Assembly (NCBI GenBank): GCA_050951325.1
Contig: JBMNIW010000003.1
Location: forward strand, 1 to 64,000
DNA from: Clostridia bacterium
GTDB lineage: Bacteria > Bacillota > Clostridia > UBA1212 > DUPL01
Direction of reading: 5' to 3'
DNA: 64,000 bases
A program made the position numbers and the translations under genes. This document shows, one piece after another, positions 1 through 22,454 of the stretch (position 1 is the stretch's first letter; every line of letters starts with the position of its first letter). A model generated the notes under the pieces. It was not told the origin of the DNA, did no database searches, and saw only the letters and a list, made by a program, of their open reading frames with translations.

Positions 1-189
1 GACTTCAACAAATTTGAAAAGCCTGTGTTCGTCAAGACTGTCCCTATGTTTATAGGCTAAATAATAATAATTTTTTGTTGGTATTAGTGATATAAAATGG
101 CCATTAAATCCAAAACCATGAACGCATTTATAAGTATCTAATAGTGCCTCGGATAGTTCTAAAGCATCTAAATTCTTAATTTCACGCAT
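1..189 (-). CDS. Hypothetical protein, runs off the left edge of the window (MREIKNLDALELSEALLDTYKCVHGFGFNGHFISLIPTKNYYYLAYKHRDSLDEHRLFKFVEV...)
   Basis: Own translation: strong RBS (GGAGGGG) before the ATG at 189 and 63 open codons to the window edge; not in the ORF track because it is truncated. Confidence 0.7.
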   Translation of the reverse strand, partial: MREIKNLDALELSEALLDTYKCVHGFGFNGHFISLIPTKNYYYLAYKHRDSLDEHRLFKFVEV

Positions 190-327
190 TACATCCCCTC
201 CTGTTCTCTGATTTTTTAAAGCGTGTACAGTGTACCATCACTTTCTTATAACTTCTAGACTTGATATCTGTTTGTTGCATGAAACTATAATTTTTCATCC
301 TTTTATTTTACATCTGCAACAAAAATA

Positions 328-358
328 AAAGCCAAGGGCAAATTTTGCCTTTGACTTT
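328..358 (-). terminator. Probable intrinsic terminator downstream of brxL
   Basis: Imperfect hairpin aaagccaagggc-aaattt-tgcctttgacttt with a U-rich tail on the minus strand, ~40 bp after the brxL stop. Confidence 0.6.
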
Positions 359-396
359 AATATTGCATAAACTATATTTAACTCCATTTATATATG

Positions 397-2439: not shown

Positions 2440-2463
2440 TGCCTTTTCACCACCTTTGCAATT

Positions 2464-5019: not shown

Positions 5020-5032
5020 ATGTTCACCTACT

Positions 5033-8000
5033 TTATATCTTTGCTAATAAATCTGCTTTCAGCGGCTTTCTGCCTTTCCCTTGAGGTATCTCCACCCCTT
5101 GGAATTTAGCATAATTAACTTTAACACCATCATCTAAATCAATCTCAATCCTTTGATTGGCCATATGGGCTATGGCCTCATCATATAACCTACATTCCTC
5201 AATCTGCTTTAAAATTGTCTCTTTCTTTTTCCTTGCAGCAGCCTTTTCCCTTTGAGAGATATCCGAATCTATTAAAATATCTAAGTGACTTACTTCTGCT
5301 TCATACTTTTTCTGTAAACTATGCAAATAATCGGTCCTTACCCTTGCAACAGTAGAAGGATCGTAGCGGTGCATGTAAATAAGGGCTTTAAACCCATCCT
5401 GCCTTCCACTATCAAAGAGCCAATAAATAGGTCGCTTTTTATATGTTCTTACATGGTCTTTATAAAAGTCCTTTAGAAAGTATCTTCTGATAGCCTGTCT
5501 TGAAGTTTCATTGGCCTTCCTACCTAAAGTTTCAGCAATGTAATCTAGATTCTCCTCCAATGTTTCTTCACCAAAAGATACCTTTACAAAGTCTACAAAA
5601 CGCTCCAGAATACCATCTTCAAAATAATCTCCATCTACAATAGGAATAACATTATGTTCTACTATGTTTACCCTCGACTTTTTCCAACCTTCTTTAGTCT
5701 TAATCTCCCATTGTCCATCACGTAGCCTGAACTTATCATCAAAATCTCCACCAGCATATATTAGACCTTCTTCATCTAAAGAGTAGCGTCCAAACATACA
5801 GCCAACAGCATAAGAGATAAAGGATTTTATAACATCTTCTCTTGTAAGTACATAATTATTTCCCTTCATACTCTCTGGTATATCTTCTTTAGAATCATAT
5901 ATTCTTGTAATGGTTACATCTTTGTCATCTACATCGGGAGTTAGTTCATCCTGGAGTCCGTAGATATCTATGAAAATTCGGTTTAGTTCTTCTTCGTTGG
6001 CCTTAAGTTGGTTAAATTGTTGGTTAGCAAAGGCTGACCAGTTGTTAAAGGCTCCTTCTATGATATCTGCTTCATTTTTATGGTTAATAAAGGATGATTT
6101 TTAAAGTCCCAAGAGGTTTCGAAGGAATCCCAATCGGAACGGGCAATATTGATATTATGCTGAACCACTACGCTTAATAATTCATCATCAAATATGCTTT
6201 CCACTACAGGAGTAAGCCCCAGTGAAATAAGATTAAAATCCAATGTTGGTGCTGTAAACTGAAAAAACATTTCCGCAACCCTAGAATTTAATAAACCTAA
6301 TAGGATAAAAATATTTTTGGCTTCATAAACGTAGCAAAGTGGCCCTTTACTATCACATAAAAATCCTTCCTCGCAATACCTAGCATTAAATTTATTTGTC
6401 AAAGCAGACCAGGTAATACCTTTTTTAAAATAAAATGAGGGATCCCTTAGCCTATAATTGTTGTTTTTACCTGAGTATTTGATTTCATACCCCTTGTTTT
6501 GCATATTTACAACATAATATAAGTTTCCATACCACTTCCTTATTTCCCCACCTTTATTATATGGATACCATCTAGTGTGTTTACTAATAGTATCCTCAAC
6601 ATTATCACACATGAAATTTATCTTTTTTATTTCAATTTCATGCCAAAATCTCAGAAATAATTCATTATTTCCGGTCATTATTCCCGACTTAGGTTCCGCA
6701 AATTTTATGAGGCTATTAGAATTGCTATAAATTTCATAAATTCGTCTGCTAGTCCAATATGCTATAGGCTTTCCAGGTATTTTATTGAAACTATCACTGG
6801 CACAACTGAATCTATATATTGTATTGCTATTTGATATTGATTCCACAGCCTTGGATTCTTTTTGCTGGGCATTACCAAACTCCACCAACCTTATATAAGG
6901 TGCTTCATACTTATTTATCCTTTTGTTTCTTAATACAAATGCAGTTGATTGAACAACTTCCCCCCCAATTTCTTCAAACGTTCTTGTTCCCAAATGCAAC
7001 ATGTTATAGATAGTCTTATTTAATAAGATGTATTCCCTTAATCCTTCGAACGATGTTAAAAACATCCATGCTTGTTGATTTATCATGGCAATATAACCCC
7101 TATTATTTGCGAATCCTAGTTCCATAAACACTGAGAATAAATCACTTTTGCTATTAGTATATTTATCATCAATATACCTAGCCAGTCGTGGACTCATACC
7201 CCTCCTTCCCATATAGGGCGGATTAGTACAAACCACATCATACTTCTGACTCATTATCTTCGCTTGTTGGATCAGTGGGGGAATTTTCTCCAATATTACC
7301 TCTTTATATTGGAGTTCAAATATATCTTCTGGAGCATTATTCCTTATTTCTTCAATTCTGTTTTCTAAGGCCTCAAAATCTATTTCCTTAACATCAAGGA
7401 TTGAACCATATTCCTTAGCATCATGGAAGACTTCAATTAAGTACTCAATATCTTCTCTATGGAAATGCTTCTCTATTTCTGTTTCCTTGGAACTAACCAA
7501 GTATTCGATAGCATCTTTGGGGATATCGTTACTTTCTTGGATAGAGCATAGGTTCATCTGTGGTTTATTTCTAAATATCCTTCTGTTTTTACTTCTTGCC
7601 TTCATGAGAAGGGCAAAGGAGGCCAGTTGGCCTGCACGATCATCTATATCAAGGCCATAAAGATTCTTTTCTAAAATAAGGCTTGGTATCTCCCTTTCTG
7701 AATAACCCGCTGATAAATATATCTCATATAGAAGGTCAAAAGCATAAACTAAAATATGGCCACTGCCCATGGCAGGATCCAATACTTTAATATCTTCTGG
7801 ATTTAAGTTGGGGTCTTTGAGTTCATCTAATTGTTTTTGAACTTCAGGTTCTTGTTCTGCTTCTTCCAAATAATATTTCCACTGAGCCTTTAATTCTTCA
7901 TTTGGATGGGATTCCAGCCATAGCCTACCTAATGAATTCTCTACCATATACTTTACTATCCATTTAGGTGTAAAGAGTTGGGTAGCAGCAGGGATATTTT

Positions 8001-8763
8001 CCTTTGTAATCTTCTTATTCTTTTTAAGGCCTGCAAAAACTTCGTCTTTCTTTTCAGAAATATAATACTGATATAGCCAACCAATAATTTCTATACCGTG
8101 TTCTCCCTTTTCTTCTTCCTGCTTCTGTTCTTCCTCATTCAGTTCTATTTTCCAATCATATTCCTCTATTTCTTCCACTAAATCTCTGATTACAGAGCCT
8201 TCAGCAAGAAGTTTGTCAGGAAGGAGTAATTCCGTATAATCAGCGATTTCCTCAAACACAGAAGGCATAATTTTTCCTAATTGATTGCATTGCTTAACTA
8301 GCAAATATCTATATAAATCCTCTGTATCGTTACTGTCTTGAAGTCTATACACTATTTCAGGATCAAGATCTAAATCTATGTTTAGAGCCTCTTGGATAAT
8401 ATCAGGCTCAGTCTTACCTTCTTCTATTGAGGATAGTACCCTAACCCCAGTAGGAAGATAGTTGTTAACTTCCATAAAACGCAGAGCAATAAAACGGTTA
8501 AACCATGTATAGGCAACCTCTTCTATAACTTGGTCAAAACCCTTATGTTTAATATTTTGAATTAACTTATCACGCTGCTTTAATTCATATTTCTTAAAGG
8601 TTTTCCCGTTTTCTCTACCCTTTACTCTAAAACCACCCTCAAAGGTTTCGATATCTAAGATTTTATCTTTTGTTATCCCTATCTCATAGGCCTTATGGGT
8701 TATATCTTCTATTAGTTTACGCCTTGCTTTTACCGCAAAGTTTCTGATGGCTGTTTTATCCAT
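5033..8763 (-). pseudogene. pglX: BREX-1 adenine methyltransferase PglX (BrxX), split by a 1-nt-deficit frameshift near 6075-6084
   Basis: ORF 6058..8763 has ATQLFTPKWIV, motif I DPAMGSG and motif IV NPPY; after ...DFKNHPLL the PglX-like sequence continues in another frame ([15 protein letters not shown]...[18 protein letters not shown]) straight into ORF 5033..5869 ([19 protein letters not shown]). Confidence 0.9.
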
Positions 8764-8780
8764 TATATCCCCTCCTCAAC

Positions 8781-11700
8781 TTAAATTAATTTCAATATGG
8801 TATTTTCCTTTAGTTCCATTTTTAATTGCTTTCTTAAATAATCAAGAAGTTCTTCTATATCTTCTTCACTTTCAATGGTTTTTGCACCATGGAATATATT
8901 TGCTATGCTTATATTGACAGTTTTTTTGGTGATGTATGAACCCATTATCTTCTCCAGTTGTATCTGGTTGTTTTTCACTGTCCCTTTCTTTTCTCTTTTC
9001 CAAGGCAGTCTTCTTGATTCCCTCAAAGCATCTCATTTTCAGTCTGTCTGACTCTTCTTTCATAGCAATGGCTTCATAGAAATTGTGGGATGAATCTAAT
9101 CTGTCCAAAAGTTCCCTAAACTTATTGCTAAACGCACCTGCCAATTCATCCTTAAAATCATATAATTCAAGTTCATCCTTAACCTTGTTCCAATCACTTT
9201 CTATTACAGCCCTTACAGGTTTACACTCTTCTTCTAACAAGATAGTAAATCTGCTAACAAACTCATTTATTAGGTTAGGCAGTCTTGAAATCTGATTATA
9301 TGGTTTTGGTGATTTAACTATTGTTTCTATTTCCTTAACGATATTTATGGTCTCCGGATCTAAAACATAGGTTTTATTCTTTTCATATATATCAAGTTGT
9401 TTAAGGGCTTTATCAAACTGGTCTCTTTGGTTTTTAAAGAATTTTTTAACGTCAAAAACTTCTTCCTCATAGTCTAATAATTCGTCTTTTACTTCATATA
9501 GTTTTTCAAAGAAGGCTGTAGCATCATTAATCTGCAAAATCTCCTTGAAGAGTTTCTTGCCTCTTTCCAGCACATCTTTACCCGGATAGTTTTTGTCTTC
9601 ATAACGAACTAATAGTTCCCTGATTTTTGACAGTTCATAGTTTGATAACTCCTTGAAACGCCTCATTAATCCATCTTCATCCCCTGGCACTGATGCGTAG
9701 TTGAAAACTTCTCTAATCAACATCCTGGCATTATTTAAATACTTTTCAGGGGTTTTAGTTCTTTTCTTTATTAGCAATCTATCTATATAATCTTTTTTCG
9801 TCATATATTGGATTAGGTTTTTATCCGAAGGATTAATATATTCGCTACCTAATTGTATCTTAATTTCCTGTGCTCTAAATAATCTAATCACTAACCCCCT
9901 GATATCATCTGGCAGCCAGCCATAAGGCGGTTTATCATATAGTTCCAATAGAGTTTTCATAGTTACAGGAATATGCCGTTGGGTGTTTCTTTCGATATAG
10001 TGGAGCATTTCATCTATGGCTAGTTTGTTTGGGATTTCTTCTTCCCCAAATATATTTATCTGGATATTTTCATCAAACAGCAGGTCATGAAGTTCTTTGG
10101 TGCTTTCAATAAAATCAGTAATATAGTTTAACTTGTCATAGATATTTTCAATAAGTACTTTCAGCCCACTGTTTATTCTTTCAACAGGATTTTTTGATTT
10201 TATATCAATTTTTTGCATATTTACATAGAAGTCTGCTTCTTGCAATGCTTCCTTAAGTAAGGATACAACTCTGTCCTTTCGCTCAGCAACTTCTCTTGAT
10301 TTTCTTATCTTTATTTCTTCAATTTCTTCCGTTTGTATAGTACCTGCTTTCCTTGTAAGGTAGGTCTGTATCTTTAATATATTCTCCATCTCTTCAAGGA
10401 AAGAAGTATCTTGAGGTAGTTTAATTATTAGATTATTTTCTCTGGCTGACATCATTCTTAATTCATGGTCAGTAAGTTCAACACCAGTATCATAATAAGG
10501 GGTAATTACTTTTACTCCTATATCGTGTTTTTGGGAGGACATATACCTATCGTCTATGATTTTGTTAAAATCAAAATGGTATCTAACGTTATAGCGAAAC
10601 TTCTTTTCACTGTAAATTCCTGTGTATATTTCCTCACCAATCTTCAATATTATCTCACTGATATCAATTGAAATATTTTGTATTTCTTTATTTACATCCT
10701 GTTCTTCATGAGTTAAGAAGATATACTCATTTCCATTTTTCTGAACCAGTGTCTCTTTTACAAGCCTGTCCAAAGATGCTTCTATTTTTTTCTTTAATTC
10801 AATTTTGTCTTCGTCAATATTTGAAACCATTAATGTTGCAATGTTTTCCAAGTTCTTTGGCATTTCTTTTACCCATTTTATTAAAAATAGGACCTTCAGT
10901 ACTTCTACATCCATACTACTGAGCCTATCGTTATCTTCTGCATGAATAAAAACTGTCCTAATATTGTGGTCTAGGAAAGTTTCTATAGTTTCGTAGAATG
11001 CAAAAAAAGGCACTAATGCTCCCACTTCTTTATCCATATATTTGATAGCAGCCTCTTGGAATGCAGATAAAAGAGACCTCTCTCCTTCTGAAAGATGTTT
11101 TCCACTAGCACCATGCTGTCTAATTGCTGTAAAAACAGACTGCAGTAATCTAAATTGATAAGGTATAAAAGGGTACACATCTATAAAGTCTTCTGCTGTT
11201 TTAAAAATTTTCATTTCCGGTGTATCAGCGGAAAAGGTGATAAGGTTTTTTATAATTGCTTCCTTGTCTGCATAGTAGAGTTTTAAAGTCTCTTTAGCGG
11301 TTTCGTTTTTATAAAGGATTCTCCTTTTAATTACTTCATCCACGTTGGCACTGGATAAACTAAGCCTTGTATTAAATCTACCTTGGATTTTAGAAAAGTC
11401 ATTACCCCTTACCTTCGTAACAGTATCTATATCTTGCTGTGAGGTTACAATAACCCACGCTTTACCCCCACAATAAGTTCCTAAATCTTCAACAACTGTC
11501 TGCAGGTTAAGCATTAAACCTACATCATCCCCTATGTATTGACCCATCTCATCCACCAAAAAGATGACATGGTGCTCTCTGTCCTTGGACTCAATATATT
11601 CTTTTACTTTATTAGCGAACTTTTCAACACTTAAAGAGTAGTTATCTTCAGCCTTGTTGTACCAATTTCGGGCTGCTTCTATACTCATTTTAGTTGTATC

Positions 11701-12336
11701 TGCTAAAGCCTTTACTATATTATCTTCTTCAAAATAAAAATCTTCTCTTGCTTCAATCCATGATTCCCCTGATAATTCCTCAAATCTTGACTTAAAGGCT
11801 TCATAAGAACCTTCTTTAACCATTTGTGCTTCAAGATCTGCAAGCCATGGCAAAGACCCGCAGAAACCTTGCATTTCATTGAACACTTTATTGAATACAT
11901 TAACTATTGATTCCTTATTAGTTCTAGAATCTGAATCGGCTTTTGAATCTATGTTAAATAAAATAACATCGGCACTTACATCCCCTGAGGCTTTGATATC
12001 TGCTAAAACAGAAGCATCCTCTATTTTATCGTCAAAATAGGATATAGCACGTTTACCCTTTACCTCTTTATTCTCAAGAAGATAAGATAAAATCTTTAAG
12101 AAATGGGATTTACCAGAACCAAAGAATCCTGATATCCAGACTCCCATTTTGTCAGTATAATTATTAATCGCTTCTCTGTAGGCCTCAAAAAAAGTGCTAA
12201 AATGTCTAGCCAATTCTCTAGTAACTACATATTCCTCTAACTCTTGATGAACATTTGCCTCATCATCTTGTCCAATCTTAATAACGCCCTTAATAGGTCT
12301 ATCAATTTCCTTATAAAACATTTTCTTTAATTTCAT
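8781..12336 (-). pseudogene. brxC: BREX P-loop ATPase BrxC, with a frameshift ~50 codons before the likely natural C-terminus
   Basis: Walker A GFFGSGKS, Walker B FLVDE, DFSKIQGRF, YPFIPYQF; the BrxC-like tail (SYITKKTVNIS...ESEEDIEELLDYLRKQLK...) is in the frame of ORF 8781..9026, which ends just before the pglX RBS. Confidence 0.85.
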
Positions 12337-12352
12337 AGTCCAATTCCCTCCC

Positions 12353-12934
12353 CTATCTTTCTACCAGTTTAAAAGCCCTATAATAGTTTTGGTCAGAAAT
12401 TTCATCAAAAAGATTTAAGTCTTGTCCTGAATAAGTCCCAGGATAAAACATGATTAAAGGTACATGATCTATTACAGAATGTAGAACATTTAAAATAGTG
12501 TGAGATCGGATAATTGGCCATATTTTCCCCACACCTGTTAAGAAAACAATATCATTTTCCTGTACTCTTTCTCTGATATACTCTACAACTAAATCATTTT
12601 TCTGGGTGAGTCTTAAAGTATTCTTTATAGGCTTAAGGATTGCATCTGTACCTTTTTTCTTCTCCATTTCAAAGACTTTTTTCAAATATCCCTTTTCCGC
12701 TAATATTTCAATCATTATTTCATAAAGGTCAATTTCTCTAATAGAAAAATCCATTCCATCATTATTTATTTTCTGCTTTAAGAACTTTATATGTTCTCTA
12801 ACAATGATTTCATCCTCAGGATCATAATCAAAAATGTAGTAGCCTATTTCATTGCCTAATCCTTTGTTCTCCCTAAATCTTTTATCTGTAATAATAGGTA
12901 GAATCTCATCAAGCCTTTCATAAATGGTCTTCAT
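12353..12934 (-). CDS. brxB: BREX BrxB (DUF1788)
   Basis: 193 aa; GLGNEIGYYIFDYDP, TGVGKIWPIIRSH, MFYPGTY, NYYRAF. Confidence 0.93.
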   Translation of the reverse strand: MKTIYERLDEILPIITDKRFRENKGLGNEIGYYIFDYDPEDEIIVREHIKFLKQKINNDGMDFSIREIDLYEIMIEILAEKGYLKKVFEMEKKKGTDAILKPIKNTLRLTQKNDLVVEYIRERVQENDIVFLTGVGKIWPIIRSHTILNVLHSVIDHVPLIMFYPGTYSGQDLNLFDEISDQNYYRAFKLVER

Positions 12935-13531
12935 TTATATCCCTCCTAACATAGCCTGCAGGTATATGCCGTCACCTTTTTCATTTAAATGATCTATTAA
13001 TTCTTGCTCCATTAAGGGTCTGGTTATTTCAACATCTTTTTTATTCTTCTTTACAAATCCGGCTTCAGTTAAGATTCTTTTGTAAACCTGCTTTAATTTA
13101 TAAAAGGTATAATCTTTCCACTCTGCCACTTTTTGACTTTGTTCTGCTTTTCTTTGGAAGAAAATAGCAAAATCCTTATCTGTAATTAAATAATCTCTTA
13201 TAAGGTATTTATCTCTATATACCTCCTGCATGAACTCAAAAAAAAGCCTGTCTGTTTTCAAAATAGCATATAGGGCTACCTGTTTGCTTGTTTCAAGGTT
13301 TCCATTTACTAATTTATCAAGTAACATTTCATCCAAGGCTTCTAGTCTTTCCGAAACGGTTGAAGCAATTTCCTTAATTCTGTTCTCTGAATTTAATGAA
13401 AATATATTTTCATCTAATGCTTTTTGTCTTATATCATCTATAGAAAACCCTTGTAAATAAAGGCTTGCAGCCTTTTTCAATTCTAAATAAAGATATGATC
13501 TTGCCTTAATTGTTGACTTATAATCTAACAT
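12935..13531 (-). CDS. brxA: BREX BrxA (DUF1819)
   Basis: 198 aa; first gene of the operon; DRLFFEFMQEV...W...T.YKLKQVY.RIL.EAG pattern. Confidence 0.9.
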   Translation of the reverse strand: MLDYKSTIKARSYLYLELKKAASLYLQGFSIDDIRQKALDENIFSLNSENRIKEIASTVSERLEALDEMLLDKLVNGNLETSKQVALYAILKTDRLFFEFMQEVYRDKYLIRDYLITDKDFAIFFQRKAEQSQKVAEWKDYTFYKLKQVYKRILTEAGFVKKNKKDVEITRPLMEQELIDHLNEKGDGIYLQAMLGGI

Positions 13532-13578
13532 GATTTACCATATCACCTCTTTTTCGTGGCCATTTTTTGTATATATAC

Positions 13579-13608
13579 ATTATACCACTATTTAATCATA
13601 AATGCATT
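13579..13608 (-). promoter_or_regulatory. Probable sigma-A promoter of the BREX operon (extended -10)
   Basis: Minus strand TGGTATAAT (TG-n-TATAAT) ~50 bp upstream of brxA; -35 poorly defined. Confidence 0.55.
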
Positions 13609-13819
13609 GAAAAACCAGAATTAATTGTGAGTTAATTCTTTAATATAAAATCCTCCCCTTATAAAACTTGAAATATTGCGATTAAAAAGAGATTAGATTT
13701 TTTATCTCTTTTATTTAATTTTTTTCTTCCTTTTCCTCATTAAATCTATTTTATTTATTTTGATGGATTTTTTATTATGTAATCTTCCATTATTTTTAGG
13801 AGCATATCGAAAATTGAGC

Positions 13820-13863
13820 AAAAAAAATAACCGTTTTGTAGTTGATAACAAAATGGTTATTTT
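13820..13863. terminator. Bidirectional terminator-like hairpin
   Basis: aaaataaccgttttgt-agttgata-acaaaatggttatttt flanked by A/T runs. Confidence 0.6.
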
Positions 13864-14095
13864 AAAAAAGTCTATTTTAGCCGATTTATACTGATTTAGC
13901 CCTATATTAGCCTACTGGGATTTTATATGAATTTCTTTCTATTTCTTTTTATTTTATTCTTTTTATTTATTTTATTTATAGCATAGTCATCCTCTATAGC
14001 GATTTTTTTCGGCACGAATAAAATAATTAGGAAAATCAACTCCCTCTACGCTTAAGCAGGCAGTATATCTCAATATATCCGCCAATATTGAAAGT

Positions 14096-14292
14096 TAATA
14101 ATTATCACTAATAGCCCTTAACAGTTTATACCCAGTAATAACTACTAACAATGGTTCTTAACTGTTATTAACCACTATCTAACAGGCTTACAATGCACTT
14201 ATCAAAGTTTAATAATGGCTAACATGCAGTAATAACGGCTAATATTGATTATTATTGGTCAACAATTGTCATTACCTTAACCTTGGTTATCA
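14096..14292. repeat. Array of degenerate TAAYA-like units with ~10-bp period
   Basis: TAACA/TAATA-like cores at 14096, 14109, 14119, 14136, 14146, 14159, 14169, 14180, then every 10 bp at 14200, 14210, 14220, 14230, 14240, 14250, 14260, 14270. Confidence 0.7.
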
Positions 14293-14457
14293 GTTTTTTT
14301 CACCTGAAAATGCTACCTTAATCAATTTAATAAATGCTACTGCTGCCAGTGTAAAAATTATTAAAGATTTGCTTCCTAACATATTATAAAGTTGTATGGA
14401 TGCACTTACTATAAGGCAGATTGAAATAATAAACGTTATTATTAAAATCTTGAACTA
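14290..14457 (-). pseudogene. Small two-TM membrane protein whose start-codon position reads TAG
   Basis: Perfect RBS AGGAGGTGA (14461-14469), TAG at the ideal start spacing, then 54 open, mostly hydrophobic codons FKILIITFIISICLIVSASIQLYNMLGSKSLIIFTLAAVAFIKLIKVAFSGEKN*. Confidence 0.55.
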
Positions 14458-14555
14458 ATATCACCTCCTGTAATCATATATGTTCTTATTGATGTCGGTA
14501 TTTTTACAATATGCAAAGTTGTTTTATCTTACATGCCTGATATACCATAATCCTA

Positions 14556-14708
14556 CTATCCTCTTTTTATCCAATCACTAAAATCTTCTCCAGTGTATAA
14601 ATTAAACCATAGAATTCTCCAATATTTTAAATGGCTTGGTATAGTTTGTCCATTGGGGAATATTAGTATTTTATCCTTTTCTAAAAACCATTTTTCTATT
14701 TTTCTCAT
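14556..14708 (-). CDS. Small hypothetical protein, 50 aa (MRKIEKWFLEKDKILIFPNGQTIPSHLKYWRILWFNLYTGEDFSDWIKRG)
   Basis: Own translation; protein-like composition, purine-rich upstream sequence; below the ORF-track length cutoff. Confidence 0.4.
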   Translation of the reverse strand: MRKIEKWFLEKDKILIFPNGQTIPSHLKYWRILWFNLYTGEDFSDWIKRG

Positions 14709-14761
14709 CCCTTTTTTGCTCCATTATATCATGGGCCTAATTGCTATTTCCGCTCCTAAAT

Positions 14762-14792
14762 AAAAAAACCGGCCTGTTAATGGCCAGTTTTT
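14762..14792 (-). terminator. Intrinsic terminator directly after the ParR-like fragment
   Basis: Minus strand AAAACTGGCC-ATTAACA-GGCCGGTTTTTTT. Confidence 0.75.
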
Positions 14793-15042
14793 AGATTCTG
14801 TCAAATATTTGGAAGACCTCATCAGGTATTTGACTTTCTTCTGTAAAATAACAATCCTTGTCTGCCGTAAGATTCATATCCTGCAAAACTTCTCTAAGTG
14901 CCCTTTTAATCCTTATTAGTTCCCTCTCCTCTTGGGTGACACCTTCACAGGCTAATATGGCTTTGATAATATAGGCTGTTTTCTGTCTTTTTGACCTGAT
15001 AATATTGTAAGCAATCCGATCATTTTCTCTTTGTAGGTTAAA
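14791..15042 (-). pseudogene. 5'-truncated ParR-like (type II partition, centromere-binding) protein
   Basis: Open frame without a start: FNLQRENDRIAYNIIRSKRQKTAYIIKAILACEGVTQEERELIRIKRALREVLQDMNL...EESQIPDEVFQIFDRI*; by eye it resembles clostridial ParR adaptors (RHH-like N-part, 'IP.E....F..' C-terminal helix); followed by a terminator. Confidence 0.55.
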
Positions 15043-15291
15043 TATTCGCCAAAGATATCAGCAAATAGATTTCTACTTTTAGAAACAACTGATGTATTAG
15101 AAAATGAGCAATGGATGATTGAAAAATGGAAAGTTGACAATAAGGTTCTTATAGACAAAATCAATAAATTATCTGAGTTTCAGGCTTTCGCAATGATTAT
15201 GATTATCTACAAATTTTGGAGAGATACAGATCGATACAAAGATGATTTATCCCTTTTGTTTAAGGATGATACTGAAAAAACTCTTATTTAA
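15040..15291 (+). pseudogene. 3' fragment of a hypothetical gene (KYSPKISANRFLLLETTDVLENEQWMIEKWKVDNKVLIDKINKLSEFQAFAMIMIIYKFW...)
   Basis: 83 open sense codons preceded by an in-frame TAG, with no RBS or start at the 5' end; ends just before the RBS of ORF 15319. Confidence 0.55.
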
Positions 15292-15318
15292 AAAATATTA
15301 TGAAAGGAATGATTATTT

Positions 15319-15858
15319 ATGGCAAACCTTACATTACCAACAAAATTATTGTATGAACAGATGAAAACTGGTCAGATGTTATCAATAAGAATTTATAGTC
15401 CGCAACTGAAGAAACATCAAACTGCTTTTGTAATAAAAGATTTTGCAAAAAATATAAAGTATATTCTAAATAACACTAACACTGCAAGCGCACGATGTTG
15501 CGTAAATGTTTCCGGAAATGCTGCTTCATTAATTTATTTAATAGGTTTTGGTGAGCATAACAACCCCCTCTATAACTATTGGTTTAACTATCATTCAAAG
15601 TCAATAAACACACACGAATTAGAAGATCTTTCATATCAAGACACTGTAGATTATTTATTAGTTGATCACAAAAATAAATTGAGAGAGGTATTAAGAATTA
15701 AGAATATTTTAGTTGATGCTGCTCCAATATATGTTAATCTTGCAAAAGAGATGTATTGGACCCCTTCCGAATTCAAACAACTACAAAATAATATAATGAG
15801 AGACTTTAAAACTTATAGAGAAATCTGGAATTCCATCCCAGTGAATATGAGTGCATAA
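15319..15858 (+). CDS. Hypothetical protein (179 aa)
   Basis: ORF with RBS AAAGGA; no motif recognised. Confidence 0.75.
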   Translation: MANLTLPTKLLYEQMKTGQMLSIRIYSPQLKKHQTAFVIKDFAKNIKYILNNTNTASARCCVNVSGNAASLIYLIGFGEHNNPLYNYWFNYHSKSINTHELEDLSYQDTVDYLLVDHKNKLREVLRIKNILVDAAPIYVNLAKEMYWTPSEFKQLQNNIMRDFKTYREIWNSIPVNMSA

Positions 15859-15903: not shown

Positions 15904-17182
15904 CTAGGGTGGAGGATGTTTATTATTTTCATTTCTTCTTAAGAAATCATAAACAGTAGTATGGCTTGTCCCCATTAATTTTGCCACCGTTGGCACGCTG
16001 TTATACTTTAATAGCCGTATTAATTCCTCTCTCCAATAATCCCCGAAATCCACAATCCGAGAATATCTATACTTGTCTTCTTTTTTCGTATCAGGTCCAC
16101 GTCTCAAATATGAAAAGCCACAATTTGGACAGGTAAAATATCCTATTGGACTCTTGTTTTTATAACTATTTCTAATTTCTACATTCTCGATGACCTGTTT
16201 CTTATATTGTTTGCAAACAGGATTTAGACACGGATACGGCCCTTTCCCAAAAGGTAGGTACCCTACATTTTGATTAAATAACACTTCTGGTGATAGACCT
16301 AAAAATCTCATAAATAATATATGTTTTAATGGATCTTCGATAGTTGCTTTATTCCATCCCATTTTTAAAAGCCAATTACTGTTATTAGTCTTCCTAATTG
16401 TATTGTGAGTCATCTGAAGTATCTCACTGCCCCAAAAGGTTTCAAAATCAGTAATAAGATTTTTCTGGCGTAGACCTCCATTCACTGTAGCATACTCTAA
16501 TATCTTTAACTGATTTAGATACTGCTCTTTTATGTTTGTTTTAATTTCAGGATTATTCAAAATCCAGTTCATATCCTCTGCAATAATCAGTAATTTTTCA
16601 TAGGTCTTTGGCTCATACACAACCTCAGTTTCAACAACACAGTTTCTTTCCGTTGCTGCTATATATTTATATTTATTGTCCTCAAATGATACACTGCTAT
16701 TATAAATAGGTATTTTATGGTGAGGACAAATATAGATGCCTCTTATCTGATGAACCCTATGCCAATATAATTCGCCATATCTTTCCATATCTTCTTTATT
16801 GCATTTTGGACAAAATCTTAGAAATTTATTTTCAGCCAGTGGGTTTATTATTCCTGTTATTTTGTTGTATATTTCAACATCCCCATGCAACATATACCGT
16901 CTTATTATTTCCCTGTTCTCAAGGCTTAAAAAGACCGTGTAATAGGGAAATAGGGTATGTTCAAGTATTAGCCTATCTACATCAAAAGGACTGTTTAAGG
17001 GCATATTGTCGGACCAAATTTGCCAATAATGTTGGGAATTCCAGGCTACAAACTATACGCTTTACATTAAACAGATCCCTCGCAGTTTCACTTCCATTGA
17101 AATTTGGACTTTTTTCATGATATCTGGCAAAAACACTATATAATATTTCATCTGTATACGGTGTAGGAAAAAAAGTCATCAT
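15904..17182 (-). pseudogene. tnsD: Tn7-like target selector TnsD/TniQ, frameshifted near 17011
   Basis: N-part FFPTPYTDEILYSVFARYH (ORF 16982..17182) plus HTLFPYY, FCPKC...YWHRVHQ...CPHH, PLKHIL, PFGKGPYPCLNPVC and CPNCGFSY (ORF 15904..17004); removing one base at GTCCGAC fuses them (..LVDNMPLNSPF..). Confidence 0.9.
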
Positions 17183-18561
17183 ATAACTTCAAATCCTTTA
17201 ATTAACCCATGATTTTTCAATATATCATAAGCAGTTAGATCTTCCTCCTTATTCTGCACCATAACTCTAATATCATTTTCTGCACTTGGAGGCACCTTCT
17301 TGGTTCTAACTTTCACTGGCTTTTCATTATTTTCTACTGTAGATGCCTTGGAAGTGGTAGGTATTACAAACCTATTCCGATTAGGCAATTCATAACTTAA
17401 ATCAATGTTCCCAGTATATATGTCAGGATATTTTACTATTTCCATTACATTACCTGTCCTTAATGCATTTAGCATTGGCTTTACCAGCCTTAAACTTTCG
17501 TCAGCCACTTGTTTAATTAATTCAGGTGTTATTGTCTCAATCCCGCTTGAAATTGCCTTTGTTTGAGCAAGGGCATAAAGTTTCACTGTTATATCAATTA
17601 TTCCTTGGGATTGATCATATAGGGTCTCTATTAATTCATCAGTCAGAGCAGTAGGCCTTTTCGTCCATTGATAGCCCCATATTGCACTTACAAGTAGTTT
17701 GAAGTTAATATCATTATCTAACCTTTCAAATACCAAATCCCCTTGCCCTGAACCCCTTCTTGCCTGTCGGAACTTCCCTTGCAATACTCCCATAGCCTCA
17801 GGAGTTCCTATTAATAATACTGGTAAGCCAATAGTATTGACTAGAGTAACAAAAAAATTCAGCATCCTGTCGGCTCCTCCAGACTTAGACTTGCTAAGAT
17901 TTTGTATCTCATCAATTACTAATAACCCTAATGAAATACTTTTAGCAATATTGCTCATGGCAACGAGCATATTATCCACTGAAAGTTTACCACTACCAAA
18001 TCGTGAATAATAGTCTGTCCCTAATATCTCATCAACCTTACTAAAAAATGATAGACAAAGTCCTTTAATGCTTCCATCGTAAGAGCATTCAAGCCTTAAA
18101 TATACTACCTGATATCGTGAAAGTGGGCTATCTTTGTATTTAGAGTGAACGATTACTTGTGGATACATGGATAATATTCTGTTCACAACTGTTGTTTTCC
18201 CCATACCTGATACTCCAAGTAAAGTAAAAGAGCCTGCGGTGCTGCGATAATTGTTTGAAACAAAGGACTTATCCAAAACATTTCTTGCTACATAACCCTG
18301 TCTTATAACTCTACTGATTCTACTTTCTAAATCTAAATGTATCGCTAGTGGCTGAAAGACATCATATAGACGTCCCACTAAATGGGCTCTGTATTGATTA
18401 TCTAACTGTCTTTCTTCTTTATTATAGGGAGGAAAATTTGCTAACTTTGATACTACCTCTTCAGAAGATGTGATTTCAGGCAATGCCTCTATAAATGGAT
18501 TACCTTTATATTCTGAAATAATCTGCTCTTTGTATTGGGCATTATGTATCAAATCCAGCAC
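17179..18561 (-). CDS. tnsC: Tn7-like AAA+ ATPase TnsC
   Basis: EYKGNPFIEALP N-terminus, Walker A GVSGMGKT, Walker B LLVIDEIQNL, FRQARR; overlaps tnsB and tnsD. Confidence 0.93.
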   Translation of the reverse strand: MLDLIHNAQYKEQIISEYKGNPFIEALPEITSSEEVVSKLANFPPYNKEERQLDNQYRAHLVGRLYDVFQPLAIHLDLESRISRVIRQGYVARNVLDKSFVSNNYRSTAGSFTLLGVSGMGKTTVVNRILSMYPQVIVHSKYKDSPLSRYQVVYLRLECSYDGSIKGLCLSFFSKVDEILGTDYYSRFGSGKLSVDNMLVAMSNIAKSISLGLLVIDEIQNLSKSKSGGADRMLNFFVTLVNTIGLPVLLIGTPEAMGVLQGKFRQARRGSGQGDLVFERLDNDINFKLLVSAIWGYQWTKRPTALTDELIETLYDQSQGIIDITVKLYALAQTKAISSGIETITPELIKQVADESLRLVKPMLNALRTGNVMEIVKYPDIYTGNIDLSYELPNRNRFVIPTTSKASTVENNEKPVKVRTKKVPPSAENDIRVMVQNKEEDLTAYDILKNHGLIKGFEVI

Positions 18562-20605
18562 GATCTTTTCCCTCCTTCTGTGCCTTTAATAGTAATTCGA
18601 CCAAATTTTGCTCGGCATCACCATAGGCTTTTTCTTCAACTACTATATTTGGTTCTTCTGGTCTTATTTCGATAATATTTTGTTTCCTCTCCTGCTGCTT
18701 CTCAAAATGGCGATTATCTCTGATATTCTGAATGCGTCTCTTTTTGCTTATGCCTTCTTCAACTTCATTTTTTGTCTCTTCTTTTGCCTGTTCAATGATT
18801 TCTTCTATGTCATTTAATAAATCTATTTTATTTTGCAATTCTACTTTTTTTGAGGCTTTAGCCTGCATTTTTTCATATTCCATTAGATATGTTACTTCTT
18901 CAATGGGCTTTTCTTTGTATCTTGACTGGTGTTCTAATAAAAAACACTTATCAAATTTTCTCCCATCTTCATATTTGATATAAATAAAACTCATATCCCT
19001 TGGATCATATGATATGTCAACTTTCCAAGATCCATTGTTCCTTGCTTTCTCGAACCATCGTTCTTTTAATGAGGTTTTAGAACCAAATAGCATCCCTTTA
19101 AACTTAATCCCATGCTGTGTCACAGTTGCTTTGTCTCTTGGCAGTAGATTTAATTTCAATAAATCTTCATCAACAGTTCTTAACCTTCCTGTTCTATTAG
19201 CAACACCCCATTCCCAGATTAACTTGGGTATAGGTTCTACACCGTCTGCAATCATATCTTCGCTTCGGGTATAGTTAGATAAATAGTGATGATTATTATG
19301 ATACAATACACATTTTATTATAATTTGAGTAAACTGCCTTAAATCAAGGGCTGCTGATAGTCTGTAATCTTGCTCTCCTCTTTCACGGTATTGACTTTTA
19401 ATTGCACCAGGCATGAAAGGCTTGGTATGTTGGTTTATAGTATTAAAATACCTCTCTATAATCCCCTTCATGTCACCTCTGTAAGGGCTGGTATTTAATA
19501 CTTTTATTCCAAATGCTGATATTAATGACTCTATGTTTTCCCCTTCCAATTCTCCTCTATCGGCAATAATTGCTTCGGGCAGGGTGCTGCAGTAATTCCA
19601 CTCATCATTGCCAATCTCTATACCGTACTTCCTGCAAAAGGTTACTTTATCTGACGCAGCATTAATTAATGCGATACTCGCCCCAATCCAACTTGGACCT
19701 TCCAAAGATATATTAATTCCTACGACACAACGTGAAAATACATCCATAACAGTATATATAACCGGCCTTCCTATAATCCAATTTCGATTATATTGGGATA
19801 CTAAATAAACATCTCCTACTGTTGCATCTATTTGAAATATTGCTCCCGGTCCAAATGCTTCTTCAGTAGAAGAGCCTGTTAGCCCCCTATGTTGTAATTC
19901 ATATCGCTTTGCACTTTGCCTGGTAGATACTTCTTTTTTAATGTTTCTCTCCTTATTAAACCAATACCTGAATTGTCTTAATGTAGGAATGGCTTCATTT
20001 ACTATTCCATTATCACTAAAGTATTCCTTAATCATAAGTTCATAGGTTAATGTTAAAGTCTTTCTTGAAGAATTGTAATAAAACCTATTAAGTGCTGTAT
20101 TAAAAATCTTTATCGTTTCGGGGGTAATAACAAAAGTATTATCTTTTTCTTTGTTCCCTTGTTTCCCACCACAATTATGATAATCAGGAAGTAAAGAGTT
20201 TTTGTGCATACCTCTCTGCCAAAATCGTTTTAAATATCTCATTACAGTTGCTTCGTGGATATTTTCAACATATTCTCTGACAAGTTTAGCCCTCTTTTCA
20301 GCAATGTAAATATCAGGCTCAATTGTAACAATCTCTTTAATGGCATTATAGGCCTTATCTCTTATGGCCTTATGTTTAGGTAGGATATCCTCTTCATCTT
20401 TAATGATCATATATGGTTCGTTATCTAAAACATATATAGTGCCATCATTTAACCCACTCTGAATAAAGGTTTCTGAAACTGTAATAGGCATTGAGTTACC
20501 GTAAATATCAATTAAATAGATGATATCTTTATAGTAATACAGAATTCGGTAATATATTTTACCCTGACTTGTTTCATATAAGATTACACTATTGATTGGA
20601 AGCAT
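18542..20605 (-). CDS. tnsB: Tn7-like DDE transposase TnsB
   Basis: GPGAIFQIDAT (D), IIADRGE (D), KGIIERYF (E), Mu-type C-terminal ISYDPRD; start taken at MLPINS behind GGGGTG. Confidence 0.93.
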   Translation of the reverse strand: MLPINSVILYETSQGKIYYRILYYYKDIIYLIDIYGNSMPITVSETFIQSGLNDGTIYVLDNEPYMIIKDEEDILPKHKAIRDKAYNAIKEIVTIEPDIYIAEKRAKLVREYVENIHEATVMRYLKRFWQRGMHKNSLLPDYHNCGGKQGNKEKDNTFVITPETIKIFNTALNRFYYNSSRKTLTLTYELMIKEYFSDNGIVNEAIPTLRQFRYWFNKERNIKKEVSTRQSAKRYELQHRGLTGSSTEEAFGPGAIFQIDATVGDVYLVSQYNRNWIIGRPVIYTVMDVFSRCVVGINISLEGPSWIGASIALINAASDKVTFCRKYGIEIGNDEWNYCSTLPEAIIADRGELEGENIESLISAFGIKVLNTSPYRGDMKGIIERYFNTINQHTKPFMPGAIKSQYRERGEQDYRLSAALDLRQFTQIIIKCVLYHNNHHYLSNYTRSEDMIADGVEPIPKLIWEWGVANRTGRLRTVDEDLLKLNLLPRDKATVTQHGIKFKGMLFGSKTSLKERWFEKARNNGSWKVDISYDPRDMSFIYIKYEDGRKFDKCFLLEHQSRYKEKPIEEVTYLMEYEKMQAKASKKVELQNKIDLLNDIEEIIEQAKEETKNEVEEGISKKRRIQNIRDNRHFEKQQERKQNIIEIRPEEPNIVVEEKAYGDAEQNLVELLLKAQKEGKDRAGFDT

Positions 20606-21410
20606 ACCTAGCACCCCAATCAATAATAATTTTGGGACGACTTTTTGCTATATCTATTGATTCATTCATATCAATGTAAATATGTTTAGATGCTAGAAGG
20701 TATTTAAAAATGTATAACCCTGTTCCATCTGACACATCATTTTCTTTATCAAAATCAGAAGTTATTTTTCTAATTGAATATTTACTATCCCTAAATTTAT
20801 CAATTAGAATGTTACAATAATTCTCTAATGAATTTTCTGTTAAGCCTCTTTCTTCATAGGTATACAAACTTGAGTGTATCCACTCTATGTTTTTTACCAT
20901 TTTAGTAGGTATTTCTTTTTGTGTAATTATGCCAAAATCAATTTGCTTCGCTGCCCAATATCTTCTCTCTATTTCCAGTCTTTCTAGCACCGACTTCTTC
21001 TCTAACTCACCTGCTGATTTTATTGTTCTTGCAATATATTTGTGATTTCGTAAAGTTAGTAGAAATGTTGTGGTTAATATATATGGAGGTTCTTTATTAG
21101 TAAAAAACTCTTGTTTAAGGTCTTTATTGTCTTTTACTACCTCTGCTAAATCTAAAAGTGGATAATGTTCTCTAATATCTACTATTTCATCATCCCATTC
21201 AAACATGTAGAAACATCTGGTTTGTATATCTGAAAAGAAATGATGTATTCTGTTTGTCTTCCAGCCTTTTATGCGTGACACCCTACCATTTGACGGGAAG
21301 TCTTGTATGGATAACCAGGGCTTATAGGAGGCTAATTCCCCTGCACCACGGTTTTCAGACAGGAATCTTTTATACTTTGCCATAGTCCAAGAAGTATCTC
21401 TTTTGGCCAT
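20589..21410 (-). CDS. tnsA: Tn7-like endonuclease TnsA
   Basis: RGAGELASYKPWL, R.HHFFSD, DIREHYPLL, LEIERRYW motifs; start MAKRD at 21410 behind GGAAGG. Confidence 0.93.
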   Translation of the reverse strand: MAKRDTSWTMAKYKRFLSENRGAGELASYKPWLSIQDFPSNGRVSRIKGWKTNRIHHFFSDIQTRCFYMFEWDDEIVDIREHYPLLDLAEVVKDNKDLKQEFFTNKEPPYILTTTFLLTLRNHKYIARTIKSAGELEKKSVLERLEIERRYWAAKQIDFGIITQKEIPTKMVKNIEWIHSSLYTYEERGLTENSLENYCNILIDKFRDSKYSIRKITSDFDKENDVSDGTGLYIFKYLLASKHIYIDMNESIDIAKSRPKIIIDWGARYASNQ

Positions 21411-21445
21411 ATAAACCTTCCTTTCTTTCATACTTCTTGGATGTG

Positions 21446-21474
21446 ATGTTAACGTAGTATACTGGGATTTTCAA
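21446..21474 (-). promoter_or_regulatory. Sigma-A promoter of tnsABCD
   Basis: TTGAAA-17 bp-TAACAT, ~35 bp upstream of the tnsA start. Confidence 0.6.
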
Positions 21475-21595
21475 CAGGGATAATGCTTTATTTTATATAG
21501 AAAACTTATTAAACGGCTGAATATTGGCGTTTGGTTACTATAAAATTTTTTCTGAAATTTACCCTTATTTTTGTGCCATTTTTTATTTATTACTA

Positions 21596-21809
21596 TGTTC
21601 AGTTACAAATAAGTTTGCTCACGGAGTGACAAAGTTTGCTCGTGTTGAAATGTAGTTGTTGCAAGGCTTCTCGCTGTTTCTTCCCTTGTAGTGACAAAGT
21701 TTGCTCGCGGGTTTTATTACCTTAAAAAATATAAAAAAAGATATAAAAAATGAGAAAATGACAAGCGAGTTTGCTCGTGAGCAGTGAAGAATGACAAAGT
21801 TTGCTCGTG
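21596..21809 (+). repeat. Tn7-type end (left-end-like) with five TnsB-site-like repeats, reading inward toward rpsI
   Basis: Starts TGTT at 21596; sites TTACAAATAAGTTTGCTCA 21603, TGACAAAGTTTGCTCG at 21627, 21692 and 21792, TGACAAGCGAGTTTGCTCG 21759; resemble the Tn7 TnsB site core GACAATAAAGT. Confidence 0.8.
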
Positions 21810-21967
21810 GAAGGTTTACTAATAAAATGAGTATTCATACGCAGGGTATAACCTACGGGAGGAAATATCGAAACCACCTACACATCTGAATTCTACTTGC
21901 TTTCGAGGGATTAAAACTGCGTCCGGATTTCATATTTTATACATTGTTATATGCTTTTTTACACAAC

Positions 21968-22005
21968 AAAAAACCGCCAAAGGTTTTTATACCTATGACG
22001 GTTTT
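21968..22005 (-). terminator. Intrinsic terminator inside the transposon end, serving rplM-rpsI
   Basis: Minus strand AAAACCGTCATAGGT-ATAAAA-ACCTTTGGCGGTTTTTT. Confidence 0.85.
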
Positions 22006-22059
22006 GTAAACTCGTAAACAAACTTTGTAAGTTTGAACAAACTCGTGTGTAATGAAACA
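22006..22059 (-). repeat. Tn7-type end (right-end-like) adjacent to rpsI
   Basis: Minus strand TGTTTCATTACACACGAGTTTGTTCAAACTTACAAAGTTTGTTTACGAGTTTAC; 19/26 identical to the 21596 terminus, first site at position 8 in both ends. Confidence 0.8.
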
Positions 22060-22064
22060 ATATG

Positions 22065-22454
22065 TTATCTCTTTGAAAACTGTGGAGCACGACGAGCTTT
22101 TTTCAAGCCGTACTTCTTTCTCTCCTTCATTCTTGGATCTCTTGTGAGGAATCCAGCTTTCTTGAGAGGTTCTCTAAACGAATCGTCGGCATCATTAAGC
22201 GCTCTTGCAACACCATGTCTAATAGCTCCAGCCTGTCCGGTGAATCCTCCACCTTTAACACTGGCAACTATGTCATACTTACCTTCAGTATTTGTAACCT
22301 GCAATGGCTGTCTTACAATTGTTTTCAAAGTCTCAAGACCGAAATAATCATCAATGGATCTGCCATTAATGGTAATCTGACCTGTACCTGGATAAAGTCT
22401 AACCCTGGCTACAGCTTTCTTTCTTCTACCAGTTCCGTAAAAATATTCTGCCAT
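22065..22454 (-). CDS. rpsI: 30S ribosomal protein S9
   Basis: [38 protein letters not shown]. Confidence 0.99.

Follow-up and report, generated by a model that had tools for sequence, protein, structure and literature searches.

What constitutes the mobile unit of a Tn7-like transposon whose transposition genes lie outside the nearest pair of ends? The question is raised by a 464-bp stretch of the genome of a Clostridia bacterium (GCA_050951325.1, contig JBMNIW010000003.1), where two inverted Tn7-type ends stand beside rpsI with no gene between them, and tnsA, tnsB, tnsC and tnsD follow beyond the inner end. The window analysed, 64,000 nucleotides of the forward strand, forms the beginning of contig C3 of this genome (G000), and starts inside the island to which the ends belong. 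A preliminary description had proposed a non-autonomous mini-Tn7 at the attachment site, a nested element with one right end and two alternative left ends, or a scar of tandem insertion followed by deletion. It is reported here that the unit is one of two direct copies placed at the extremities of an island of about 25.3 kb, and the interpretation thought on balance somewhat probable is that of a cointegrate-type Tn7-like island produced by replicative transposition, the outer ends of which move the island whilst the inner ends define mobilisable mini-elements.

The mini-element (21596–22059) is a complete Tn7-type unit without a gene, arranged L'-interior-R, and is the proximal of the two copies. 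Its inner left-type end, L' (21596–21810, plus strand), has a TGT terminus at 21596 facing tnsA, and contains five dispersed TnsB-type sites, all on the same strand (~21603–21621, 21624–21644, 21689–21709, 21757–21779 and 21789–21809). The right end, R (22000–22059, minus strand), has the terminus TGTTTCA at 22059–22053, followed on the minus strand by two packed sites (R1, 22052–22034, and R2, 22029–22013) and a possible third (22012–22000). Both the TGT...ACA termini and the asymmetry of the site arrays are those of Tn7-like ends. The plus strand from 21596, TGTTCAGTTACAAATAAGTTTGCTCA, and the minus strand from 22059, TGTTTCATTACACACGAGTTTGTTCA, agree at 19 of 26 bases, with the first site beginning at position 8 in both. 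These sequences, coordinates, flanks and site counts had all been given in the preliminary description and were reproduced from the sequence, the third outer site being only a possible one. The 15-mer GACAAAGTTTGCTCG has three exact occurrences in the mini region, all inside 180 bp, and exact copies across the 3.08-Mb assembly are found in two places only, here and at C2:3015–3194, a rarity which places the site array beyond chance. The interior (21811–21963) is of a type designated A, a second type, B, being present in other copies, and an Rfam scan of 21300–22200 gave no match at E <= 1.

Towards the chromosome, the mini-element terminates 5 nt past the stop codon of its attachment-site gene, rpsI (ribosomal protein S9, by Pfam; 22065–22454, minus strand, with rplM also present on that strand), the intervening pentamer being ATATG (22060–22064). 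The flank before the L' terminus is TACTA (21591–21595), and the 464-bp unit itself therefore has no 5-bp duplication. Between L' and the start of tnsA lies a leader of 164 nt (21432–21595, minus strand), which is kept beside L' in relatives. The earlier claim that tnsA begins beyond the inner end is borne out; the promoter assigned to it is a weak match (21474–21446, 9/12 consensus positions), and two such sites were found where a shuffled-sequence comparison gave 2.8 as the expectation for the region. The scan for promoters and terminators yielded no excess above shuffles, and missed the right-end hairpin described below.

The second mini-element, L-interior-R', lies outside the window at C2:2759–3227 of the same genome, in direct orientation relative to the proximal copy. 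The twins are 93% identical overall (444/476 aligned positions); ~330 central bases are identical, and the divergence forms a block of ~100 bases preceding the right terminus. As C2:1 and C3:1 map to one base in the colinear islands of two relatives, G031 and G033, the two contigs are taken to abut head to head with a one-bp overlap. This agrees with a third relative, G034, to which the alignments run from C2:6 and C3:23, and with metagenome locus L079, where one alignment of 2.1 kb was obtained. On this join, the island extends from C2:3227 down to C2:1 and resumes at C3:1, ending at C3:22059, with ~3.2 kb of its length on C2. Its order is chromosome, L-interior-R', a DUF7662/GIY-YIG-like gene and a tyrosine recombinase gene, a bacteriophage exclusion (BREX) system, tnsD-C-B-A, L'-interior-R and rpsI. 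There are thus four ends, two per mini-element, and one tns operon in the genome, the genes of which lie outside the L'-R unit, but between the outer pair formed by L (C2:3227) and R (22059).

For seven such composites the flanks on both outer sides are known. Perfect 5-bp duplications enclose three of them (ATTAT/ATTAT in G030, AAATT/AAATT in G034 and CCAAT/CCAAT in the metagenome composite L069+L101). The window's own island has GTATG (C2:3228–3232, other strand) against ATATG, a 4/5 match; G031 and L079+L074 share the pentamers AAATA and CAAAC, respectively, each shifted by one base; and G033 (GCACC/ACCGA) has a 3-base overlap only. The preliminary description had suggested looking left of the window for a further end flanked by ATATG: the distal left end is indeed there, and its flank departs from the expected pentamer at one base. 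The inner flanks, by comparison, are in no case a match for one another. Ahead of L' the sequence ends in TTATTACTA, and R' is followed by ATGAAC, CTGAAC or AAGAAC, so that the composites consist of direct copies flanking a carried segment, with duplication at the outer flanks only, as in a pseudo-compound transposon. Recombination between the two copies in G000 was considered as a cause of the missing duplication and ruled out, because the flanks do not cross-match. It was also observed that the bases outside every distal R' (for example, L001 2752–2758) read NNGAAY, followed by about six similar bases despite differing cargo, and that GAACA outside R' is the complement of the start of the left terminus, TGTTC.

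The layout is widespread. When species genomes were scanned with TnsB, eight loci were recovered, seven of them 88–99% identical and in different Bacillota, the other 68% identical; hosts include Tissierella, Lachnoclostridium, metagenome-assembled genomes of Dethiobacteria and Desulfitobacteriia, and others. Comparison of six genomes (G000, G030, G031, G032, G033 and G034) found two direct mini-elements around the tns genes and cargo in every one except G032. In G031, G033 and G034 the second copy occupies the distal extremity of the island; in G030 it is on another contig. G032 has two tandem mini-elements adjoining rpsI and no distal copy. The R terminus falls 4–6 nt past the rpsI stop codon in all six. 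Both copies were also found on three long metagenome contigs (L069+L101, L074+L079 and L077+L103), 37–46 kb apart. A 27-base query, the sequence of which does not vary among the aligned copies that include it apart from an N in the distal copy of G031, was matched by 46 metagenome stretches. The 34 right termini recognised in these loci divide into 15 no more than 20 nt from an rpsI stop codon, 15 of the distal R' type, at which NNGAAY leads into varied cargo, one that runs into a tandem left end, and three other cases. For six left termini the start of tnsA is no more than 400 nt away, and a further two show the flank of the tnsA leader; in four of the six (L074, L095, L101 and L102) the right end of the same copy abuts rpsI. 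Insertion is therefore site- and orientation-specific, downstream of a conserved gene. These data also bear on whether a collapsed or misjoined repeat could have yielded an apparent mini-element at rpsI, an idea prompted by the repeated nature of the unit, the C2/C3 break inside the island and the many metagenome contigs that end in a mini-element. Beyond the six metagenome loci just mentioned, two relatives (L015 and L016) align colinearly to the window through rpsI, the mini-element and tnsA, and hence across both junctions, and in the sequencing runs, searched as contigs, the inner-end junction is bridged by record 15 of run X15 and the rpsI junction by a 40-kb contig, record 32 of run X5; an assembly artefact is thus close to refuted. 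Summed contig depth over the mini-element exceeded that over tnsA and rpsI, but such a figure gives no copy number and is given no weight here.

As proposed previously, the region upstream of tnsA was compared across TnsB homologues, and the inverted left terminus is kept: a left-type TGT terminus faces tnsA from ~160–185 nt upstream in L021 (68% TnsB identity) and L033 (77%), with at least two or three sites in each, these contigs stopping before a right end. The architecture is confirmed at 68% TnsB identity and above only, and k-mer and repeat scans of relatives at 35–52% identity did not delimit ends. One of these more distant relatives, L053 (G152:C94, 52% identity), has two inverted CTTTGTAA/TTACAAAG pairs 300 nt upstream of tnsA, which resemble operators rather than ends, with a toxin-antitoxin-like pair further upstream.

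The protein sequences offer a possible reason for this arrangement. The catalytic residues of Tn7 TnsA are taken here to be E63, D114 and K132. TnsA of the island (tnsA, 20589–21431, minus strand; Pfam N- and C-terminal TnsA domains), aligned with its Tn7 counterpart (PDB 1f1z/1t0f, E about 1e-35), has Gln70 and Thr122 in the catalytic Glu and Asp columns, and keeps Lys138. The motif SDLE of Tn7 is replaced by SDIQ and MSTDF by LTTTF, while the Lys of (Q/E)xK is retained; the Glu/Asp/Lys nuclease triad of a cut-and-paste TnsA is consequently incomplete. Across an alignment of 19 sequences, Q and T occupy these columns in all full-length TnsA proteins of the 88–99% relatives, as well as in L021, L033 and L054–L059. 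The L019 reading frame diverges from the rest close to the Lys. E is kept in L052 and L053, with S or T in the Asp column, and L060 and L061 keep both E and D. TnsB (18542–20623, minus strand; Pfam Mu-transposase C-terminal domain; E = 6.6e-109 against Tn7 TnsB) is intact in its DDE columns, with IDAT, ADRGE and GIxE kept. TnsA is accordingly predicted from its residues to be without nuclease activity. The TnsA catalytic triad is given as Glu, Asp and Lys in PMC13598128, and a single active-site change in the TnsAB protein of a type I-D CRISPR-associated transposon (CAST), D106A, gave 149/150 cointegrates, compared with 0/150 for the wild type (PMC9881144). A TnsA unable to cut the 5' strand is expected to make transposition replicative, with the donor DNA carried in.

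Taken together, transposition genes outside the ends, two direct copies of the unit and duplication at the outer flanks only suggest a structure left by replicative transposition. The steps envisaged begin with TnsD, which would recognise the conserved 3' end of rpsI, after which TnsB would nick and then join the 3' ends. TnsA, lacking two of its three catalytic residues, would be unable to cut the 5' strands, making the reaction replicative and bringing in the donor DNA; a circular donor made up of one mini-element, the tns genes and cargo would integrate as mini-X-mini. Thereafter, the outer L and R ends could move the whole island, the L/R' and L'/R pairs would stay usable as mini-elements mobilised in trans, and recombination between the copies would remove X and leave a solo mini-element, the right end of which would supply its own terminator for the rpsI transcript. 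The nested element of the preliminary description comes closest to this picture, since outer ends enclosing the whole island are supported by perfect duplications in three of the seven composites; it had counted three ends rather than four, the twin being on C2.

Solo copies of the kind expected do occur. Mini-like DNA is present in 26 of 398 scored genomes of the class, and a TnsB homologue (E <= 1e-40) in 21, of which, besides G000, only two exceed 68% identity. G095 has a solo mini-element at rpsI with a perfect TAAAC/TAAAC duplication, and no TnsB homologue was found in that genome at E <= 1e-40 with this query. Partial losses are seen in G038, which retains the mini-element and 76 bp of the tnsA leader, and in G346, which retains the mini-element and tnsA only. 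With both ends, no transposase gene and several copies, including tandem ones and a solo one with a duplication, the unit has the character of a miniature element, as the first of the earlier options held, and the stand-alone copy that the preliminary description had proposed to look for is provided by G095. Tandem mini-elements or end remnants at rpsI were recorded in G032, G031 (copy mini0), G034, L087 and L090, the composite of G034 adjoining an older right-end remnant with AAATT between them. At L091 (2764–5290), a Na+/H+ exchanger gene lies between a full and a partial mini-element beside rpsI, with no tns genes; the arrangement is either a composite without them or host DNA caught between two insertion events. 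The genome set contains no close relatives of the host, only genomes of the same order with ~70% DNA identity in rpsI, and no empty site of the same species.

The inner ends themselves show possible traces of activity or exchange. Three loci in three hosts, with different rpsI flanks (L017, L018/G034 and L020), have the L' terminus joined to the equivalent of window position 21369; 226 bp are lost, including the start of tnsA, and the deletion begins exactly at TGT. Such terminus-precise loss is expected from attack by the L' end, or from insertion of a mini-element followed by recombination, and is not proof of cleavage. Within this lineage (L017, L018/L027 and L020), L' is fused into tnsA at rpsI and there are further insertion sequences in tnsB/tnsC; its occurrence in three hosts indicates that defective derivatives spread, presumably helped in trans. 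Alignment of 15 mini copies found both ends in 14, the exception being G031_mini0, cut at the left by the start of its contig; all five left-end sites are present in 12, the first site being variant in G031_dist and G033_prox and the array cut off in G031_mini0. The copies are mosaics of two interior types with shuffled left and right variants, which indicates that they recombine often.

Several observations weigh against a cointegrate origin. The inner flanks, TACTA and ATGAA in G000, form no duplication, and a single locus among the 46 from metagenomes, L105, has a circle-type junction, in which the tnsA leader, the mini-element and the DUF7662 gene are joined; this may be a circle, a tandem form or a repeat-induced misassembly of short reads. 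The inactivity of TnsA is a prediction from alignment, and the ends of L060 and L061, whose TnsA keeps E and D, were not delimited by k-mer and repeat scans, leaving the comparison without a canonical outgroup. Copies formed by cointegration should be identical at the outset, and those of G000, with their divergent right-hand block, are not, nor are those of G031 and G033, which differ in left-end and interior types. Later recombination could account for this. Finally, one pair of right-end variants, proximal and distal, is common to G000 and G031; such sharing is more readily accounted for by an inherited composite than by new duplication with every integration, as far as the aligned copies tell, and implies that at least some islands spread as ready-made composites.

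A bolder version of the cointegrate account, entertained only tentatively, treats the element as a Tn7 turned inside out. The true transposon would be the 0.46-kb gene-less unit, with tnsABCD and the defence cargo riding outside it as a circular translocatable unit. The unresolved cointegrate would then be the normal integrated state, recombination between mini-elements would free the circle and leave a solo mini-element with a terminator for rpsI, and the loss of TnsA catalytic residues would be an adaptation, not decay.

The island might instead be a frozen scar, in which mini-elements and a canonical element inserted one after another at rpsI, once, in an ancestor, and deletions followed, leaving a structure that moves through its outer ends only, with R' and L' inert and kept alike by gene conversion. 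Common tandem copies and end remnants at rpsI, the frequent recombination evident from the mosaic copies, the right-end variants shared by G000 and G031, and outer duplications that suit movement as one unit would all be at home in such a history. Nonetheless, the ends that a canonical element should have possessed could not be traced beside tnsA or the cargo in any island, the inner ends retain TGT/ACA termini and sites in every island examined, and the inverted left-type terminus persists upstream of tnsA at 68% and 77% TnsB identity. In three hosts a deletion begins precisely at the L' terminus, and the scar offers no reason for the loss of TnsA catalytic residues, so that this explanation is judged unlikely. 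Tandem insertion, the last of the earlier options, may stand as an origin of the arrangement, but leaves unexplained its retention down to 68% TnsB identity and the altered TnsA. It is less probable still, and indeed improbable, that the inner left array is mainly regulatory, serving as an operator for autorepression or as an immunity sink, with its likeness to a terminus secondary. In every full element the array does stand 164 nt upstream of tnsA, the only promoter-like matches fall inside it and the leader, and the TnsB sites of the Tn7 right end overlap with the promoter of the tns genes; against this, those matches are no commoner than in shuffled sequences, the TGT terminus is conserved and pairs with a right end into a unit, and that unit also occurs solo with a 5-bp duplication (G095) and as a distal copy far from tnsA. 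A regulatory function is in any case compatible with the cointegrate explanation, under which the inner array is also a working end.

The right end carries a further feature that links the mini-element to its host gene. An intrinsic-terminator-like hairpin of 11 pairs followed by a U-run lies 55–90 nt inside the R terminus (21964–22005, with the hairpin at 21970–22005; minus strand, the rpsI-sense direction), and is common to all 13 copies folded together, with compensatory changes in 4 of the 11 pairs. Folding of the window copy gives -18.4 kcal/mol on the rpsI-sense strand against -14.0 on the other, and of the C2 copy -26.4 against -14.0. The hairpin would, to judge from its predicted fold, halt rpsI transcription at the element's edge and block read-through. 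Just beyond the distal left end is another hairpin with a U8 run in the rpsI sense, which is probably the displaced native rpsI terminator. In about 14 genomes the match to the mini-element covers its positions 355–464 only, the last ~100 bases, which comprise the terminator and right end. Both of the right-end-only remnants inspected (L113 and L114) adjoin rpsI, and such remnants may have been kept because they now terminate its transcript. A loose end at 22061 in run X5 was also seen to resemble an unoccupied site bearing a terminator, and is not assignable to this species.

The remaining genes agree with a Tn7-like, target-selecting element, Pfam matches having been obtained for all of TnsA, TnsB, TnsC and TnsD/TniQ. 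The AAA+ regulator gene tnsC (17179–18561; AAA_22/TniB) and the target selector tnsD/tniQ (15904–17170; TnsD and TniQ) are both on the minus strand. As stated in the preliminary description, tnsD is broken: comparison with L015 and L016 shows an indel of one base near 17010, and the shortened open reading frame (ORF; 15904–17004) encodes 366 amino acids, without the first ~55 residues of the 420–421 amino acids encoded in relatives. Unless this is a sequencing error, the island is probably no longer able to target rpsI by itself. Between brxA and tnsD, ~1.8 kb of AT-rich DNA (13531–15319) is without long ORFs, and parts of it are 85–99% identical in G031 and G032.

The cargo (1–13531, minus strand) continues onto C2, and its main part is a type 1 BREX set at 397–13531 which looks complete: brxA, brxB, brxC, pglX, a 278-amino-acid ORF without a Pfam match, pglZ and brxL. 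The BREX genes of G033 are ~94% identical in DNA, and G031 has genes of the cyclic-oligonucleotide-based antiphage signalling system (CBASS) type instead. The tyrosine recombinase gene (C2:920–1783) lies beside the gene for the DUF7662 protein, which has a weak GIY-YIG match (the two within C2:920–2742). G000, G034 and L105 have this pair directly beside R', G031 has the recombinase deeper in the island, and no recombinase near R' was seen in G033 or G030 among the ORFs scanned. A tyrosine recombinase with GIY-YIG is mentioned in the 'Tsy' elements of Faure et al. 2023. The recombinase may have a role in resolution or in cargo exchange.

Recognition of the arrangement has practical value, as many solo mini-elements and right-end remnants beside rpsI would otherwise be overlooked in annotation, and it identifies a widespread carrier, among the Bacillota of anaerobic digesters, of defence cargo of the BREX and CBASS kinds. 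It also adds rpsI to the Tn7-like attachment sites. No Tn7-like element linked to rpsI was found in a literature search that did not extend to supplementary lists of attachment sites, the one paper with both terms being, by its title and the start of its abstract, a review of streptococcal mobile elements, and the main text of Faure et al. 2023 mentions neither rpsI nor ribosomal proteins; likewise, at the level of abstracts, the search found no description of natural gene-less Tn7-like mini-elements.

How, then, does the island compare with systems already described? It shares with the prototypic, TnsD-type Tn7-like elements the TnsA, TnsB, TnsC and TnsD/TniQ proteins, TGT...ACA ends with a dispersed left and a packed right array, 5-bp duplications, and a fixed insertion point downstream of a conserved gene. 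It differs in its attachment to rpsI, a TnsA without the catalytic Glu and Asp, tns genes outside the L-R units, and four ends rather than two. The IS26 pseudo-compound transposons offer a second parallel: passenger DNA is enclosed by a small element repeated in direct orientation, the structures form by cointegration, and recombination leaves one copy. There the transposase is encoded inside the repeat; the present repeat has no gene, and the transposition genes sit in the passenger segment.

Cointegrates are also formed by the type V-K CASTs, according to PMC11406308, and both these TnsA-less systems and TnsA mutants place two direct copies of the unit around the donor backbone. The present island is by comparison natural, chromosomal and inherited; its repeat is a 0.46-kb gene-less mini-element, and its 'backbone' holds the tns genes and cargo. 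The closest parallel for TnsA itself is found in the telomeric Tn7-like elements of Streptomyces (bioRxiv 10.1101/2024.11.13.623437), which retain a TnsA that has naturally lost its active site, have non-canonical ends and are proposed to follow a replicative route. No other natural loss of the TnsA active site was found in the literature search, supplementary surveys lying outside it. Those elements are described there as having one end and occupying the telomeres of linear replicons; the island has paired ends of both types, an internal site beside rpsI, a Bacillota host and a duplicated mini-element, and so falls outside the one-ended telomeric class. The Tn5053/Tn402-type elements (PMC8649781) likewise have a predicted replicative pathway, and the tyrosine recombinase of several islands (G000, G031, G034 and L105) recalls them; they have no tnsA and a dedicated res site and resolvase, whereas tnsA is retained here. 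If the replicative reading is true, the island would provide the second natural nuclease-dead TnsA after that of the Streptomyces telomeric elements, and the first at a chromosomal attachment site, would show the Tn7 machinery integrating a whole gene-carrying circle, and would offer a natural system for the tolerance and resolution of cointegrates, a problem still open for V-K CAST tools (PMC11406308). Tn7-like elements have usually been delimited by their outermost TnsB-site arrays, and the presence of tnsA has been taken, as by Benler et al. (PMC8649781), as a sign that transposition is cut-and-paste; for the island at rpsI, both assumptions break down.

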